Source: Candidatus Dojkabacteria bacterium UBA3081 (GTDB lineage: Bacteria; Patescibacteriota; Dojkabacteria; SC72). Taken from it: 29,653 bases of DNA. Under the pieces are notes generated by a model, which saw nothing but the letters and a program-made list of their open reading frames with translations, made no database searches and had not been told where the DNA came from. The stretch is taken from assembly GCA_002366615.1 (NCBI GenBank), contig DFBL01000023.1, positions 1 through 29,653 on the forward strand, given 5' to 3'. The translations under genes were made by a program, and so were the position numbers. Of the stretch, positions 10,497-16,288 are shown piece after piece; the stretch's first letter is position 1, and every line of letters begins with the position of its first letter.

Positions 10497-11090
10497 ATGA
10501 GAAAAGAAGGACGAACAACGAAGAAGAATGATATTGAAAAACTATCTGATGCTCAGATAGTGGAGCTTGTTCTTTCAGATCTTAATGCATATAGATATAT
10601 AATTGGGAGGTATGAAGAGAAATTACTAAGATATATCCGTAGAATACTTTACGTTAACAAAGAAGATGCAGAGGATATACTTCAGGAGGTTTTTGTAAAG
10701 GCGTATAGGAATATTAATAGCTATAACAGGAAATATAAATTCTCTAGTTGGATATACAGGATAGCTCATAATGAGGCTGTTTCCTTTTTAAGAAAGAAAA
10801 ACAATAAATTTGATACAGTACAAGATGATGAGATTTTTGACAAAATACCATCAAAAAGTAACATAGAGGATGATTTTTTGACAGATTTAAAGGGACTTGA
10901 AGTAAGAAATATTTTAGAAAGATTAGAGAAGAAGTATAGGGATGTTTTAATACTAAGGTATTTTGAGCAAATGGAGTATAATGAGATATCAGATGCTCTT
11001 CGTATTCCAAGTGGTACAGTAGCATCTTTAATTAATAGAGGGAAGAAAAAGTTTAAGATATTAGTACAAAAATATGGCAAAAATATCTAA
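10497..11090 (+). CDS. ECF-type RNA polymerase sigma-70 factor
   Basis: Region 2 DAEDILQEVFVKAY...FSSWIYRIAHN; region 4 YRDVLILRYFEQMEYNEISDALRIPSGTVASLINRGK. Confidence 0.92.
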   Translation: MRKEGRTTKKNDIEKLSDAQIVELVLSDLNAYRYIIGRYEEKLLRYIRRILYVNKEDAEDILQEVFVKAYRNINSYNRKYKFSSWIYRIAHNEAVSFLRKKNNKFDTVQDDEIFDKIPSKSNIEDDFLTDLKGLEVRNILERLEKKYRDVLILRYFEQMEYNEISDALRIPSGTVASLINRGKKKFKILVQKYGKNI

Positions 11091-11796
11091 CAGAATACTT
11101 GAAAAAATAGAGAAAGAGGATATTAAACCAATTGGTAAGTGGAGCTTTGTATTAAAAAACTCAATACTATGGACTCTCTTTGTATTGAATATCATATTTG
11201 GAAGTGTTGGATTTGCACTATCAATATATCTCTTTGAATCTAGTGATATATTAAATCTAGTGCTCTCTGTAAATGATTTTTTGGAGTTGCTTATACTAGC
11301 TATACCTACAATATGGTTAATACTTACAATTTTGTTTGTAGTAGTAGGATATCTTAACTTTAGATATACTGATAGGGGATACAAGATCTCCTTTCTTAAA
11401 CTACTTTTGATAAATATATCCACTATTATACTTTTAGGTATAGGGATACACTCTCTAGGTGTGCCTAAAAATGTAAATAAGTTGCTAGCAGAGAGAATAC
11501 CTTCTTACAGTGAGTTAACAGATCCAAGGTACAAAGTATGGAGCAGACCTGAGCAAGGGTATCTCTCAGGTAGTATATCTTCACTTGAAGAGAATGATAA
11601 ATTAATACTTAAAAGTTTTAACAATACTGTTTGGAGAATAGATGTATCTTCTGCAGTGGTAAGAAGGGCTGTTAATTTGGTTAAAGGAGAGAAGATAAAG
11701 GTTAGGGGTAATACTGTTGGAGAGGGTCTCTTTAAAGCTTCTGAGATACTTCCTTGGGAGGGTAGAGGAAGAAAAATGCAAGAAATTTATCAATAA
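11074..11796 (+). CDS. Multi-TM membrane protein with C-terminal OB-fold-like domain; probable anti-sigma factor
   Basis: Overlaps the sigma stop by 17 nt; short charged N-terminus, about three hydrophobic helices, beta-rich tail (GYLSGSI...WRIDV...GEKIKVRG...FKASEI). Confidence 0.6.
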   Translation: MAKISNRILEKIEKEDIKPIGKWSFVLKNSILWTLFVLNIIFGSVGFALSIYLFESSDILNLVLSVNDFLELLILAIPTIWLILTILFVVVGYLNFRYTDRGYKISFLKLLLINISTIILLGIGIHSLGVPKNVNKLLAERIPSYSELTDPRYKVWSRPEQGYLSGSISSLEENDKLILKSFNNTVWRIDVSSAVVRRAVNLVKGEKIKVRGNTVGEGLFKASEILPWEGRGRKMQEIYQ

Positions 11797-11904: not shown

Positions 11905-12312
11905 ATGAAGAACAAAGGAATTATACTAGGAACCTTAGCAGTAGCTCTTTTAGGAGTAATAGCGTTTACTACAACAAAGGCTGATGCTTACAGAGGTGAC
12001 TATACAAAAGTAGGTCCTAACCATACTGAGGAAAGAGAAGCTCAGATGGAGGAGGTTTTTGAAAGCAAGAACTTTGAGGACTGGAAAGCTCTTATGCAAG
12101 AGGATGGAAGAACTCCTGGAGTATTAAGGCATATCGAAAGCCAAGAAGATTTTGAGGCTTTTGTACAGGCTAGAGAATTAGCTAAGGAAGGAAATATAGA
12201 GGAAGCTAATCAAATTAGAGAGGAGTTAGGTATGGGTCAGGGAGGAATGAAGAGAGGAAATGGTCAGGGAAATGGAAACGGATCTATGATGAGAGATGGT
12301 AGTTGTAATTGA
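11905..12312 (+). CDS. Secreted helical protein with Gly/Met-rich tail (Spy/CpxP/ZraP-like by architecture)
   Basis: Signal peptide ending A-D-A, Glu-rich helical core, tail GMGQGGMKRGNGQGNGNGSMM; followed by a terminator hairpin. Confidence 0.6.
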   Translation: MKNKGIILGTLAVALLGVIAFTTTKADAYRGDYTKVGPNHTEEREAQMEEVFESKNFEDWKALMQEDGRTPGVLRHIESQEDFEAFVQARELAKEGNIEEANQIREELGMGQGGMKRGNGQGNGNGSMMRDGSCN

Positions 12313-12382: not shown

Positions 12383-13387
12383 CTAACACTTATTACTATC
12401 GACTGCTAGCTGTCCACATGCGCCCTTAATATCCCCACCTTGTGATTTTCGTATAGTACAATTGATACCATTGTTTAGGAGAATCATCTGGAATGTTTTA
12501 ATATTATCTGATTTTTTAAAAGGTAAACATCCAACTTCATTGTAATTAATTAGATTAACTAGTGCTAATCTACCTTTTAGTAAATTTGCAAGCTCTATAG
12601 CATTTCCAACAGAATCATTTACCCCCTTAAGCAGGACATACTCATAAGTAATTCTCTTGTTACTGTTTTGTGTATACTCATCTAATACCTTAAAAAGATC
12701 TTTTAGAGTATTACTTTTTGATACTTTAGGCATTAACATATCTCTTAGTTTTTGGTTAGGTGCATGTAAGCTTATAGCGATTTTTACACCGTAATTTTTG
12801 TCTAAAAAGGTCTTTAAATTTTGTACATAGCCTGAAGTAGACAGTGTTGCACGCCTTTTCCCAAATGCAAGTCTATCCTTGTCTAGAATAGTCTCAATTG
12901 AGTATGAAACACTTTCTAAGTTGAGTAGTGGCTCTCCCATGCCCATGTATACAATATTGGATATCTTTTCATTCTTTGTTCTCAATTTCCTCCCAAAGTA
13001 AAGGATTTGATCGATAATTTGTTGGCTGTCTAGAGACTCATTAAGACCCATTTGACCTGTAGCACAAAATATACAACCAACAGGACAGCCACTCATACAG
13101 CTAACACATACAGTATTTCTTCCTTTTACTTTCATTAATACACTTTCTACAAAGTTTCCCTTCTCTGTTTTAAAAAGTACTTTTTCTGTTTTTCTATTTT
13201 TTGATATGTTGCTTTCCTGATGAATTAGTTTAGAGAAGGCAATTTCTTTCTTTAATTTTTCCCTTAAATCCTTAGGCCATGTGGTTAGTTCATCCCAAGA
13301 GGAAAGGTATTCTTTGTAATACTTCTGATTGAATTGATCAATTCTGTACTTTTCTATACTATATTTCTTTGCAAATTCTTCTATCAT
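12383..13387 (-). CDS. rlmN: Radical SAM 23S rRNA/tRNA adenine C2-methyltransferase RlmN
   Basis: ESVLM, CPVGCIFCATG (CxxxCxxC), MGMGEPL, AISLHAP, ITYEYVLL, GACGQL; TATAAT 8 nt upstream on the minus strand (13396-13401). Confidence 0.9.
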   Translation of the reverse strand: MIEEFAKKYSIEKYRIDQFNQKYYKEYLSSWDELTTWPKDLREKLKKEIAFSKLIHQESNISKNRKTEKVLFKTEKGNFVESVLMKVKGRNTVCVSCMSGCPVGCIFCATGQMGLNESLDSQQIIDQILYFGRKLRTKNEKISNIVYMGMGEPLLNLESVSYSIETILDKDRLAFGKRRATLSTSGYVQNLKTFLDKNYGVKIAISLHAPNQKLRDMLMPKVSKSNTLKDLFKVLDEYTQNSNKRITYEYVLLKGVNDSVGNAIELANLLKGRLALVNLINYNEVGCLPFKKSDNIKTFQMILLNNGINCTIRKSQGGDIKGACGQLAVDSNKC

Positions 13388-13425: not shown

Positions 13426-14796
13426 ATGGCTGTACAATTTAATTATGTTGCTCCTAAAGGTTGGAAACCAAAGAATGCTGATAGGGACTATTTAATTACC
13501 TATTTAGATATTGAATTAGCAGATGGAATTCCAGAAGATAAATTTGAGGATGCTGTAGCTAGTTGTGCTGCAGAAAGCTCTACTGGTACTTGGACAAAGG
13601 TATTTTCTGGTAAAAATTCTGGAGTAAAGCTTGCTGATAAATTAAAAGCTATAGCATATGATTTAGATCCTAAAACAAAAACCTTTAAAATAGCGTATAA
13701 GAGGGAGATATTTGAAGAAGGAAATATGTCGGGACTTTTAGCTGGGATTGCTGGAAACATAGATAGTATGAAGATGTTAAAAGCATTCAGACTAATAGAT
13801 GTCCGATTCCCTGAAAGTATTGTAAAGAGTTTCCCTGGACCACAATTTGGTATTGATGGTGTTAGGAAGTTTATGCAGATTGAAAGTGGTCCACTGATGT
13901 GTACCGTAGCTAAACCAAAAATTGGAAGGACTGCTAAAGAACAGGCTGCTTTAGCTAAGATTCTCTTTACAGCTGCAAAAGGAGAGTATCAAGGTATTAA
14001 GGATGATGAGAATTTAACTAGCTTGTATTTTAATCAGTTTGAGAATAGATGTAGAAGAGTACATAAGGTGAGAAGAGATATTGAAAGGAAGACTGGTAAG
14101 AGAAAGATGTTTTTGTGTAATACTACACACTCCGATATGGATATAATGCTGGAAAGAGCAGATATGATTAAGGAGCAGGGTGGTAGGTGGATGATGATGG
14201 ATGTTGTAACTACTGGTTTTACAGCTGTACAGACCGTAAGAAATCAGAATCCTGGACTAGCAATACATGCACATAGGGCAATGCATGGACTTTTAGATAG
14301 GGAATCTGGGCCCGGAGTGTATGATAAGAGAGAGATAATGGACTTCTCTATGTCTATGGTCGTTATCGCAAAAATCATGCGTTTACTAGGCGTAGATTCT
14401 CTTCATGGGGGTGCACCTAAGACAAAGATGGAGAATTACAATGAACCGAAATTAATACAAGAAGCATTGCAGTCAGCTGTTACCCCTCAAGGTCCTATGA
14501 CACTAGGGCAGAATTGGTTTGGGATGAAAGGAGTTTGGCATACTGCTTCAGGTGGTTTACATTCCGGCTCTATTGGTGAGTCTATTAAGAAATTAGGAGA
14601 GGATATCATTTTACAGGCTGGAGGAGGAGTATTAGGTCATCCATGGGGAATAGAGGCGGGAGTAGAAGCTATGGTTCAAGCTAGAGATATTGCTATGAAA
14701 AGGTTGGATATAGAGGTTTGGATAAAGAATAACCCAGATAGTGCACTTGCTAAAGCTTCATCTCATTGGGGCTTTGGTCCTAAGATTGTATATTAG
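13426..14796 (+). CDS. rbcL: RuBisCO large subunit, form III-like (no small subunit)
   Basis: AAESSTGTW, AGN, KPKIG, KDDEN, HAHRAMHG, LHGG...KME, ASGGLH, QAGGGVLGHPWG: the canonical active-site set is present. Confidence 0.9.
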   Translation: MAVQFNYVAPKGWKPKNADRDYLITYLDIELADGIPEDKFEDAVASCAAESSTGTWTKVFSGKNSGVKLADKLKAIAYDLDPKTKTFKIAYKREIFEEGNMSGLLAGIAGNIDSMKMLKAFRLIDVRFPESIVKSFPGPQFGIDGVRKFMQIESGPLMCTVAKPKIGRTAKEQAALAKILFTAAKGEYQGIKDDENLTSLYFNQFENRCRRVHKVRRDIERKTGKRKMFLCNTTHSDMDIMLERADMIKEQGGRWMMMDVVTTGFTAVQTVRNQNPGLAIHAHRAMHGLLDRESGPGVYDKREIMDFSMSMVVIAKIMRLLGVDSLHGGAPKTKMENYNEPKLIQEALQSAVTPQGPMTLGQNWFGMKGVWHTASGGLHSGSIGESIKKLGEDIILQAGGGVLGHPWGIEAGVEAMVQARDIAMKRLDIEVWIKNNPDSALAKASSHWGFGPKIVY

Positions 14797-14821: not shown

Positions 14822-16288
14822 ATGTCAAACAAAGGTATAACTTCAAGAAGTGAAAGTTACTCTCAGTGGTATCTTGATATCATTGATAGAGCACAATTAG
14901 CTGAGAATTCATCTGTTAGAGGATGTATGGTTATTAAACCTTACGGTTATGCTATATGGGAGAATATTCAAAGAGAGCTTGATTTAAGGATAAAGGAGAT
15001 GGGAGTTAGTAATGCATATTTCCCGTTATTCATACCAAAATCCTTTCTTTCGAAAGAGGCTAGTCATGTTAAAGGTTTTGCAAAAGAGTGTGCAATAGTC
15101 ACTCATTACAGATTAAAAGAGACCAAGGATGGAATGGGGGTAGAGGTTGATCCAGAAGCAAAATTAGAAGATGAACTTATCGTACGACCAACCTCAGAAA
15201 CAATTATGTATGATACATTTTCTAGATGGATTGAGTCATGGAGAGATCTACCATTAAAGATCAATCAGTGGGCTAATATTGTTAGATGGGAGAGGAGAAC
15301 CAGACTTTTCCTAAGGACAACGGAATTTTTGTGGCAGGAAGGTCACACCGTTCATGAGAGTCATGAAGAGTCTAAAAAACAGGTAATAGAGGCATTAGAA
15401 ATGTATAAGAGATTTGCAAGAGAGGTTCTCGCATTGGAAATGTATGGGGGCAAGAAATCTGAATCAGAAAAGTTCGCAGGAGCAGTAGATACATATGGAG
15501 TAGAGGCTTTGATGCAAGATGGGAAGGCTTTGCAATTTGGAACTTCACATGATTTGGGTCAGAATTTTGCTAAGGTATTTAATATTAAATATATAAACAA
15601 GAATGGAGAGCTAGAGTATCCATGGCAGACAAGTTGGGGAGTGAGTACTAGGATGATGGGGGCCATAGTTATGTCTCATAGTGATGATTTAGGGCTTGTC
15701 CTTCCTCCTATAATTGCACCTATAAAGGTCGTGATAATTCCAATTTACAAAGAGGGAAATAAAGATAAAGTTATGGAGTTTGTTAAAGATGTAGAAAGCA
15801 AACTATCCACAGTAGTTGATAGGGTACATCTAGATGAGAGAGACTTTGTATCTGTTGGTTTTAAATTTAATGAATGGGAGAAGAAGGGTGTGCCAGTTAG
15901 AATTGAGATAGGGGAGAGAGACTTAGAAAAGAAAATGGTTACTATAGTAAGAAGAGATACAAACGAAAAGGAAGAGATTAGTGTTAATAGTATAGGAAAC
16001 GATATTAAAATTATCTTAGATAATATACAATCGGAGCTTCTTAAAAGATCTCAAAAAATACTAGAGGAGGGTACTACGCAAGTATCATCATATAAAGAGT
16101 TCAAAGACATTCTAAAGGGGAAGAAAGGTTTTCTTAAAGCATATTGGTGTGGTAGTAAGGAGTGTGAAGATGCTATTAAGTATGAGACAAAGGCTACAAA
16201 TAGGTGCTTTTCTAAAACAGGCAAAGGTAATTGTATATATTGTGGCAAAGAGAGTGATAAAGAGTGGGTATTTGCGATGTGCTATTAG
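14822..16288 (+). CDS. proS: Proline--tRNA ligase, archaeal/eukaryote-like type
   Basis: VRGCMVIKPYG, VRPTSET, NQWANIVRWE, FLRTTEFLWQEGHT, QTSWGVSTR, C-terminal Cys cluster and terminal Tyr; no INS editing domain; TAGAAT 6 nt upstream. Confidence 0.96.
   Translation: MSNKGITSRSESYSQWYLDIIDRAQLAENSSVRGCMVIKPYGYAIWENIQRELDLRIKEMGVSNAYFPLFIPKSFLSKEASHVKGFAKECAIVTHYRLKETKDGMGVEVDPEAKLEDELIVRPTSETIMYDTFSRWIESWRDLPLKINQWANIVRWERRTRLFLRTTEFLWQEGHTVHESHEESKKQVIEALEMYKRFAREVLALEMYGGKKSESEKFAGAVDTYGVEALMQDGKALQFGTSHDLGQNFAKVFNIKYINKNGELEYPWQTSWGVSTRMMGAIVMSHSDDLGLVLPPIIAPIKVVIIPIYKEGNKDKVMEFVKDVESKLSTVVDRVHLDERDFVSVGFKFNEWEKKGVPVRIEIGERDLEKKMVTIVRRDTNEKEEISVNSIGNDIKIILDNIQSELLKRSQKILEEGTTQVSSYKEFKDILKGKKGFLKAYWCGSKECEDAIKYETKATNRCFSKTGKGNCIYCGKESDKEWVFAMCY

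Follow-up and report, generated by a model that had tools for sequence, protein, structure and literature searches.

The question raised by this locus is what a ribulose-1,5-bisphosphate (RuBP) carboxylase/oxygenase (RuBisCO) does in Candidatus Dojkabacteria bacterium UBA3081, a bacterium belonging to the candidate phyla radiation (CPR), where the original prediction had described its gene as stand-alone, with a full catalytic set, between rlmN and proS and without pathway partners. The gene, rbcL, lies in a window of 29,653 nucleotides (the whole stretch of DNA analysed here; GCA_002366615.1, contig DFBL01000023.1), which is contig C61 of a genome of 613 kb in 61 contigs, with an estimated completeness of 88.8% and an estimated contamination of 0.22%. 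It is the one RuBisCO gene of this genome. By its sequence, the product (hereafter the query) is a genuine RuBisCO large subunit. It belongs to the form III-like type, which had been described before, and is an ordinary member of that type. We consider it very likely that the query is catalytically competent and that it acts as the carboxylase of adenosine monophosphate (AMP)/pentose-bisphosphate salvage in its ultra-small CPR host.

The catalytic residues were mapped through alignments with form I, II-type and III references, and are given here as spinach residue followed by query residue. The N-terminal domain retains E60 (E50), T65 (T55) and N123 (N111). Next come K175 (K163) and K177 (K165), and then K201 (K192), D203 (D194) and E204 (E195) of the activation motif. 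They are followed by H294 (H283), R295 (R284), H298 (H287), H327 (H327) and K334 (K334), and further by S379 (S375), G380/381 (G376/377) and G403/404 (G400/401). All 18 catalytic or RuBP-binding positions are kept in the query, including the carbamylated lysine and the lysine of loop 6, and every residue that had been listed as part of a full catalytic set was present. The 18 positions are intact in 118 of the 126 form III-like rows, and the query belongs to this intact majority. From the comparison of the query with its relative in locus L004, pN was 0.10 and pS was 0.61, and the resulting dN/dS of about 0.085 points to strong purifying selection on rbcL. The homologue P0004 starts with MAVQFNYVAPKGW, as the query does. 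The whole-genome profile search returned the same RuBisCO catalytic range, residues 142-446, as the Pfam match.

The best solved structures by sequence were the form III enzymes of Thermococcus kodakarensis (E 5e-78) and Pyrococcus horikoshii. The AlphaFold2 model of the query had a pLDDT (predicted local distance difference test) of 92.4 and a pTM (predicted template modelling score) of 0.93. When it was compared by Foldseek with the T. kodakarensis RuBisCO in complex with carboxyarabinitol bisphosphate (3A12), the TM scores were 0.88/0.92 and the root-mean-square deviation was 2.2 Å. The RuBisCO-like proteins (RLPs) of form IV, such as MtnW and OiaX, have this superfamily fold in common with the query; the catalytic set is partly lost in them and complete in the query.

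Four form III-like proteins from the databases, P0100, P0101, P0104 and P0121, have lost 5-11 of the 18 positions. P0121 has Gln at the site of the carbamylated lysine and Ser at the H294 equivalent. These four are degenerate copies, probably without carboxylase function, and they are nested among intact ones. They resemble the residue-deficient WS6 proteins that were found to be inactive in Wrighton 2016 (PMC5113843).

The class of the query was assigned from profile scores, database searches and phylogeny. Among the NCBIfam hidden Markov models (HMMs), the type III model (TIGR03326 equivalog) was at the top with 374.3 bits, followed by a form I-type subfamily model with 370 bits. The form II model gave 188 bits (cut-off 489), and the form IV models (OiaX, MtnW) gave 111-157 bits. 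In a search of 5.8 billion proteins, the nearest sequence was 88% identical to the query, within a dense family. Two nr entries named 'RuBisCO long chain, Form III-like [uncultured bacterium]' showed 85-86% identity, and proteins from Candidatus Dojkabacteria or candidate division WS6 showed 71-76%. In an exhaustive HMMER search of representatives at 50% identity, two close full-length proteins were obtained at 555 and 495 bits, and the next full-length one at 281 bits. This drop from 495-555 to 281 bits or less indicates that the form III-like clade is sharply bounded.

A maximum-likelihood tree was built from 70 sequences, with three annotated form IV proteins carried on plasmids as its root, namely OiaX and two proteins of the 'large subunit family'. 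The locus search with a 12-sequence alignment gave form III-type loci only, and annotated plasmid records supplied the references for forms I and IV. Form I was represented by cbbL of S. meliloti pSymB, which adjoins cbbS/cbbX, and by two representatives that, like the one form II-type representative, were labelled by an NCBIfam score over the cut-off. The form III references were Methanosarcina and Archaeoglobaceae genes. The tree is without a named form II or II/III organism sequence, and the unannotated Azospirillum lipoferum sequence L085 was left out. Branch support is the Shimodaira-Hasegawa-like approximate likelihood-ratio test (SH-aLRT) only, a quick method with no bootstrap, and the deep relations among form III subgroups were not interpreted. 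The Pacearchaeota sequence L017 has 44 stops in its joined match and a very long branch, and its position in the tree is not meaningful.

In this tree the query fell inside a clade of 23 rows (SH-aLRT 100, stem 0.7), which includes P0004 and P0006, nr entries named 'Form III-like'. The hosts of the clade are Dojkabacteria, Gottesmanbacteria, other Patescibacteria, Woesearchaeota, Pacearchaeota and Micrarchaeota. Form I, which formed a separate clade with 100% support, the form II-type sequence and the Methanosarcina/Archaeoglobaceae form III all lay apart from it, and a branch with 100% support parted the query from the three annotated RLPs. The restriction of the hosts to CPR bacteria and DPANN archaea fits the clade membership and the 613-kb genome of the query's own host. 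The form III-like clade was defined, and put in the AMP/pentose-bisphosphate pathway, in Wrighton 2016 (PMC5113843) and Jaffe 2019 (PMC6389311). The clade of the query matches the host range and the topology given there for form III-like RuBisCO.

Two other identities, form IV and form II/III, were rejected. Form IV is at variance with the complete residues, the scores of 111-157 bits and the fully supported separating branch, so that the view of the query as something other than a typical form IV protein was borne out by residues, profiles and tree alike. For form II/III, the form II score of 188 bits stands against a cut-off of 489, and an N-terminal-side insertion of 29 or more residues is lacking. 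For form III-b, as defined by the TIGR03326 equivalog, 374.3 bits stands against 497.

The genome-wide search for the partners that had been proposed, AMP phosphorylase, ribose-1,5-bisphosphate (R15P) isomerase and phosphoribulokinase (PRK), changed the picture of a stand-alone enzyme. Within the window the description holds, as none of the three is present there. The genome has AMP phosphorylase-like and R15P isomerase-like genes side by side and co-oriented, on contig C18 only (L002:1474-3941, minus in locus), so that the enzyme is not without pathway partners. PRK was not found genome-wide, with 8 candidates scored and none passing PF00485. The C18 phosphorylase (501 aa) is an archaeal-type nucleoside monophosphate (NMP) phosphorylase, with 447 bits on TIGR03327 (below the cut-off of 535) and scores passing the cut-offs of TIGR02645 and NF003338. 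Its best matches in the PDB were 4GA5/4GA6, with 304 bits over residues 9-491, the N-terminal domain included, as compared with 114 bits or less for pyrimidine-nucleoside phosphorylases. Entries 4GA4-4GA6 are the AMP phosphorylase of T. kodakarensis. The e2b2-like gene encodes an eIF-2B-family protein of 313 aa, whose best PDB matches were the R15P isomerases of Pyrococcus/Thermococcus (5YFJ, 3A11) with 134-139 bits, as compared with 81-96 bits for methylthioribose-1-phosphate isomerases. Just upstream on contig C18 is a beta-CASP ribonuclease-like ORF (open reading frame) fragment (L002:3947-4336), archaeal aCPSF1/Cas14-like by NCBIfam.

The same association is seen in related genomes. RuBisCO was found in 38 of the 41 related genomes, that of the query included, and an AMP phosphorylase-like gene in all 41. 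In a form III-like locus from Patescibacteria (L013), e2b2, rbcL and the AMP phosphorylase gene are in a row, and in an archaeal form III-like locus (L016) the AMP phosphorylase gene is 5 kb from rbcL. By their gene order, these layouts link form III-like enzymes with the same partners.

From these genes the following route is proposed. The archaeal-type AMP phosphorylase of C18 would convert AMP (or another NMP) and Pi to R15P and the base, and the adjacent R15P isomerase would convert R15P to RuBP. RuBisCO, with K192 carbamylated and Mg2+ on D194/E195, would then produce two molecules of 3-phosphoglycerate (3-PGA) from RuBP, CO2 and H2O. The 3-PGA would then pass to phosphoglycerate mutase, enolase and pyruvate kinase of lower glycolysis, and the flux along this path would yield pyruvate and ATP. 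Pyruvate kinase and two candidates of the metalloenzyme family (mutase-type) are present in the genome. In T. kodakarensis the AMP/pentose-bisphosphate route is already known (Sato 2007; Aono 2015; cited after PMC5113843 and PMC6389311). The earlier assignment of CPR form III-like enzymes to AMP/nucleoside salvage agrees with the clade placement, the C18 partners and the PRK search. The description of the query as a divergent form III-like carboxylase likewise accords with its position in the named Form III-like clade and with a genome that has the deoA-like and e2b2-like partners and in which no PRK was found.

The query is probably an L2 homodimer without a small subunit. In Kehl 2026 (PMC13454268), 15 of 18 soluble rubiscos from deep-branching clades were dimers, and a III-like enzyme from Kerfeldbacteria was in the characterised set. 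No small subunit gene or Calvin-Benson-Bassham (CBB) genes were found in the window, and rbcS was not searched genome-wide.

Two features of the sequence had been pointed out as oddities, and both turned out to be shared. The motif GEYQGIKDDE does replace the usual GxDFxKDDE; it is not peculiar to this gene and represents the version of the Dojkabacteria subclade. The form III-like rows displayed have G-x-Y-x-[G/F/C]-I-K/Q-DDENLT, and the deeper members (Gottesmanbacteria, other Patescibacteria) have GSYDFIKDDE, still fitting GxxDFxKDDE. Therefore, the change from Asp-Phe to Gln/His-Gly is specific to the Dojkabacteria-type subclade. Neither of the two positions is a catalytic residue.

The insertion that follows the strand with the H294/R295 equivalents is real. 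It was found in all form III-like rows displayed, with 11-12 residues, or 8 in P0122, so that it is a clade-wide feature, already published in 2019 and 2026 (PMC6389311, PMC13454268). The 13-residue string given for it originally covers the 11 residues, and its boundaries are uncertain by 2-3 residues. The insertion is opposite a gap in the form III enzyme of T. kodakarensis, in form I, II-type and III-b sequences, and in the sister group L018-L020. Jaffe 2019 (PMC6389311) described an insertion of mostly 11 residues in form III-like enzymes, and its site would be the same as that in the query. Over the insertion at residues 340-354 of the P. syntrophicum RuBisCO 9Z01, the query aligned gap-free with P0155, a near-copy of that PDB entry. 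In 9Z01 the insertion makes a beta-sheet with the N-terminus and is common to the form III-like lineage (Kehl 2026, PMC13454268), whereas in the AlphaFold2 model of the query it is, at moderate confidence, a loop containing one short helix. The mean pLDDT was 67 for residues 291-300 and 84 for residues 301-310, and the conformation of the insertion is therefore not settled in the model.

Comparison with known systems placed the query close to published form III-like RuBisCO (PMC5113843, PMC6389311). It is of the same clade with the same hosts, an insertion of about 11 residues and no small subunit, and it has the same genome-level association with deoA-like and e2b2-like genes. Nothing of substance differs; the query is a new sequence, with 88% identity to its nearest database relative. 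The form III-b enzyme of T. kodakarensis (1GEH, 3A12) has the same fold, the same catalytic residues and the same proposed three-enzyme route. It shares about 37% identity with the query, which differs from it by the 11-residue insertion, by a helix before the KDDE strand that is 3 residues longer, and by Q-G for D-Y/F. The T. kodakarensis RuBisCO is an L10 decamer, whereas the query is probably a dimer. In the P. syntrophicum RuBisCO 9Z01, which is 34% identical to the query, an insertion likewise follows the HxHRAxHG strand at this site; unlike the query, 9Z01 is 559 aa long, is extended at both the N- and the C-terminus, and has two more insertions.

It is conceivable, though we think it improbable, that Gln-Gly beside the carbamylated lysine and the 11-residue insertion together give this subclade properties unseen in characterised RuBisCOs. 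The two changes could, for example, alter activation or carbamylation, make the dimer contact a different one, or shift the preference to another pentose bisphosphate. If such effects are real, they could account for the weak activity or inactivity of the form III-like enzymes that have so far been assayed under standard conditions. The remaining wider interest of the locus lies in the biochemistry and structure of this Dojkabacteria-type subclade of form III-like enzymes.

The coordinates of rbcL, its parts and its neighbours are summarized in Table 1. The neighbours rlmN and proS had been named from the sequence, and Pfam agreed. The pair rbcL-proS is kept in seven related loci (L004-L009 and L015; 70-83% RuBisCO identity). 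The next gene after proS is uvrA in six of the seven, the exception being the short L015, and rlmN is upstream of rbcL in the two closest loci, L004 and L005. This conservation in seven loci indicates that the 'stand-alone' site is old and stable in the lineage, with no recent insertion. Co-transcription of rbcL and proS is possible. A weak terminator-like hairpin is located inside the 3' end of rbcL. The promoter scan gave counts no higher than in shuffles, and no clear Shine-Dalgarno sequence was found ahead of the rbcL start.

Table 1. Positions of rbcL, its domains and motifs, and the adjacent genes in the 29,653-nucleotide window.
Feature	Position	Strand	Evidence or remark
rbcL, form III-like RuBisCO large subunit, 456 aa	13426..14796, stop included	+	ORF, ATG start, Pfam PF02788 + PF00016
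N-terminal domain RuBisCO_large_N, residues 24-131	13495..13818	+	Pfam PF02788, E 4e-25; holds E50, T55, N111
TIM-barrel catalytic domain RuBisCO_large, residues 142-446	13849..14763	+	Pfam PF00016, E 7e-58
Activation/metal-binding motif GEYQGIKDDE	13981..14010	+	K192 (carbamylated, spinach K201), D194, E195
11-residue insertion PGVYDKREIMD, residues 296-306	14311..14343	+	after HAHRAMHG, following the H294/R295-equivalent strand
rlmN-like radical SAM gene, divergent	12383..13387	-	Pfam; 38-nt gap to rbcL
proS, archaeal-type prolyl-tRNA synthetase gene, co-oriented	14822..16288	+	Pfam; 25 nt past rbcL
uvrA, beyond proS		-	

Several points weigh against a working carboxylase in the salvage route. 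In Wrighton 2016 (PMC5113843), the recombinant OD1 form III-like protein was less active than the active PER enzyme. No carboxylation could be detected with the WS6 form III-like proteins, which the authors tie to missing catalytic residues. The published form III-like assays that we found were weak or negative, no biochemical proof was found for the Dojkabacteria subclade, and no published kinetics or structure was found for a catalytically complete form III-like enzyme of the Dojkabacteria type. The query is under the curated type III cut-off (374 against 497 bits), the e2b2-like protein is under its own (183 against 314), and rbcL is on a different contig (C61) from the phosphorylase/isomerase pair (C18). 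Neither enolase nor phosphoglycerate kinase (PGK) was found in the assembly, which is 88.8% complete, so that the path below 3-PGA has gaps as assembled. Of 24 genomes from the same family, 23 have enolase, as do 35 of 41 related genomes when the query's own genome is counted among the 41; from the family count, its absence here is probably an assembly gap. The sequencing-run search listed no RNA run with the gene, and only one DNA run, a marine metagenome that is probably the source. Taken together with the many catalytic residues lost in the clade members P0100, P0101, P0104 and P0121 and with Gln-Gly in place of the Asp-Phe of GxDFxKDDE, the assay results would also suit a protein that is RuBisCO-like in function, keeping the fold and catalysing another enolisation-type reaction or being a poor or inactive carboxylase, as in form IV or the degenerate form III-like copies. 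We regard this as unlikely. The query keeps every catalytic or RuBP-binding residue examined, the carbamylated and loop-6 lysines included, and thus has the complete set in which the inactive WS6 proteins are reported to be deficient; both the tree and the HMM scores set it well apart from form IV; and its genome provides a route to RuBP through the two enzymes of C18.

A cycle with PRK, either Calvin-Benson-like or similar to the reductive hexulose-phosphate pathway, has been suggested for some Gottesmanbacteria with form III-like/III-c enzymes. For the query such a role is very improbable, since none of the 8 PRK candidates in its own genome passed PF00485, the window is without a small subunit gene or CBB genes, PGK was not found in its own assembly, and the 613-kb genome has the reduced gene content of CPR bacteria. 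It is also hardly to be expected that rbcL is a recent lateral acquisition or a contaminant from binning or assembly. Lateral movement of RuBisCO forms among CPR and DPANN is known (Jaffe 2019, PMC6389311), and related genomes differ in the form they have, with II/III-type, III-like and others scoring higher on the Pfam catalytic-domain model. However, the rbcL-proS arrangement extends down to 70% RuBisCO identity, with uvrA and rlmN placed as described above, the GC content around the gene (0.34-0.39) is similar to that of the rest of the window, and the contamination estimate is 0.22%. We therefore favour a competent form III-like carboxylase of AMP/pentose-bisphosphate salvage. In this lineage the form III-like RuBisCO gene is chromosomal, stable, inherited vertically and fixed in its position (rlmN/rbcL/proS/uvrA), and the enzymes that would feed RuBisCO stay together elsewhere in the genome. 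The query adds one more marine-metagenome example to the RuBisCO class described in 2016.

Some further observations were made on the neighbouring sequences and on relatives. Two ORFs without a Pfam match are located upstream of rlmN, and both are conserved at this place in L004. The one at 11905-12312 (+) encodes a protein of 135 aa that has a hydrophobic segment at its N-terminus and a tail rich in Gly, Asn and Met, and is 67% identical in L004; the other, at 11074-11796 (+), encodes a membrane-like protein of 240 aa and is 50% identical. The records of L004, L005, L008 and L015 are titled 'uncultured Candidatus Saccharibacteria'. RuBisCO and synteny group these loci with Dojkabacteria, and the label is probably loose and automatic.

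Two related small genomes (G013, G021) each have two RuBisCO types, namely a II/III-type copy, whose Pfam match is split (an internal insertion), and a form III-like copy; the II/III-type copies in relatives are genes distinct from the form III-like ones. A Dojkabacterium with both RuBisCO forms was published in Jaffe 2019 (PMC6389311), with which G013 and G021 agree. Two families of the same order (f2, f5) have a RuBisCO form scoring 260-290 bits on the Pfam catalytic domain. In three database proteins the RuBisCO domain is joined to long additional sequence. P0160 (1265 aa) has this domain at residues 449-842. P0126 (742 aa) and P0127 (726 aa) have about 350 extra residues at the N-terminus and are near sequences from Falkowbacteria and Kerfeldbacteria; these two are probably isomerase-RuBisCO fusions as reported for form III-c.

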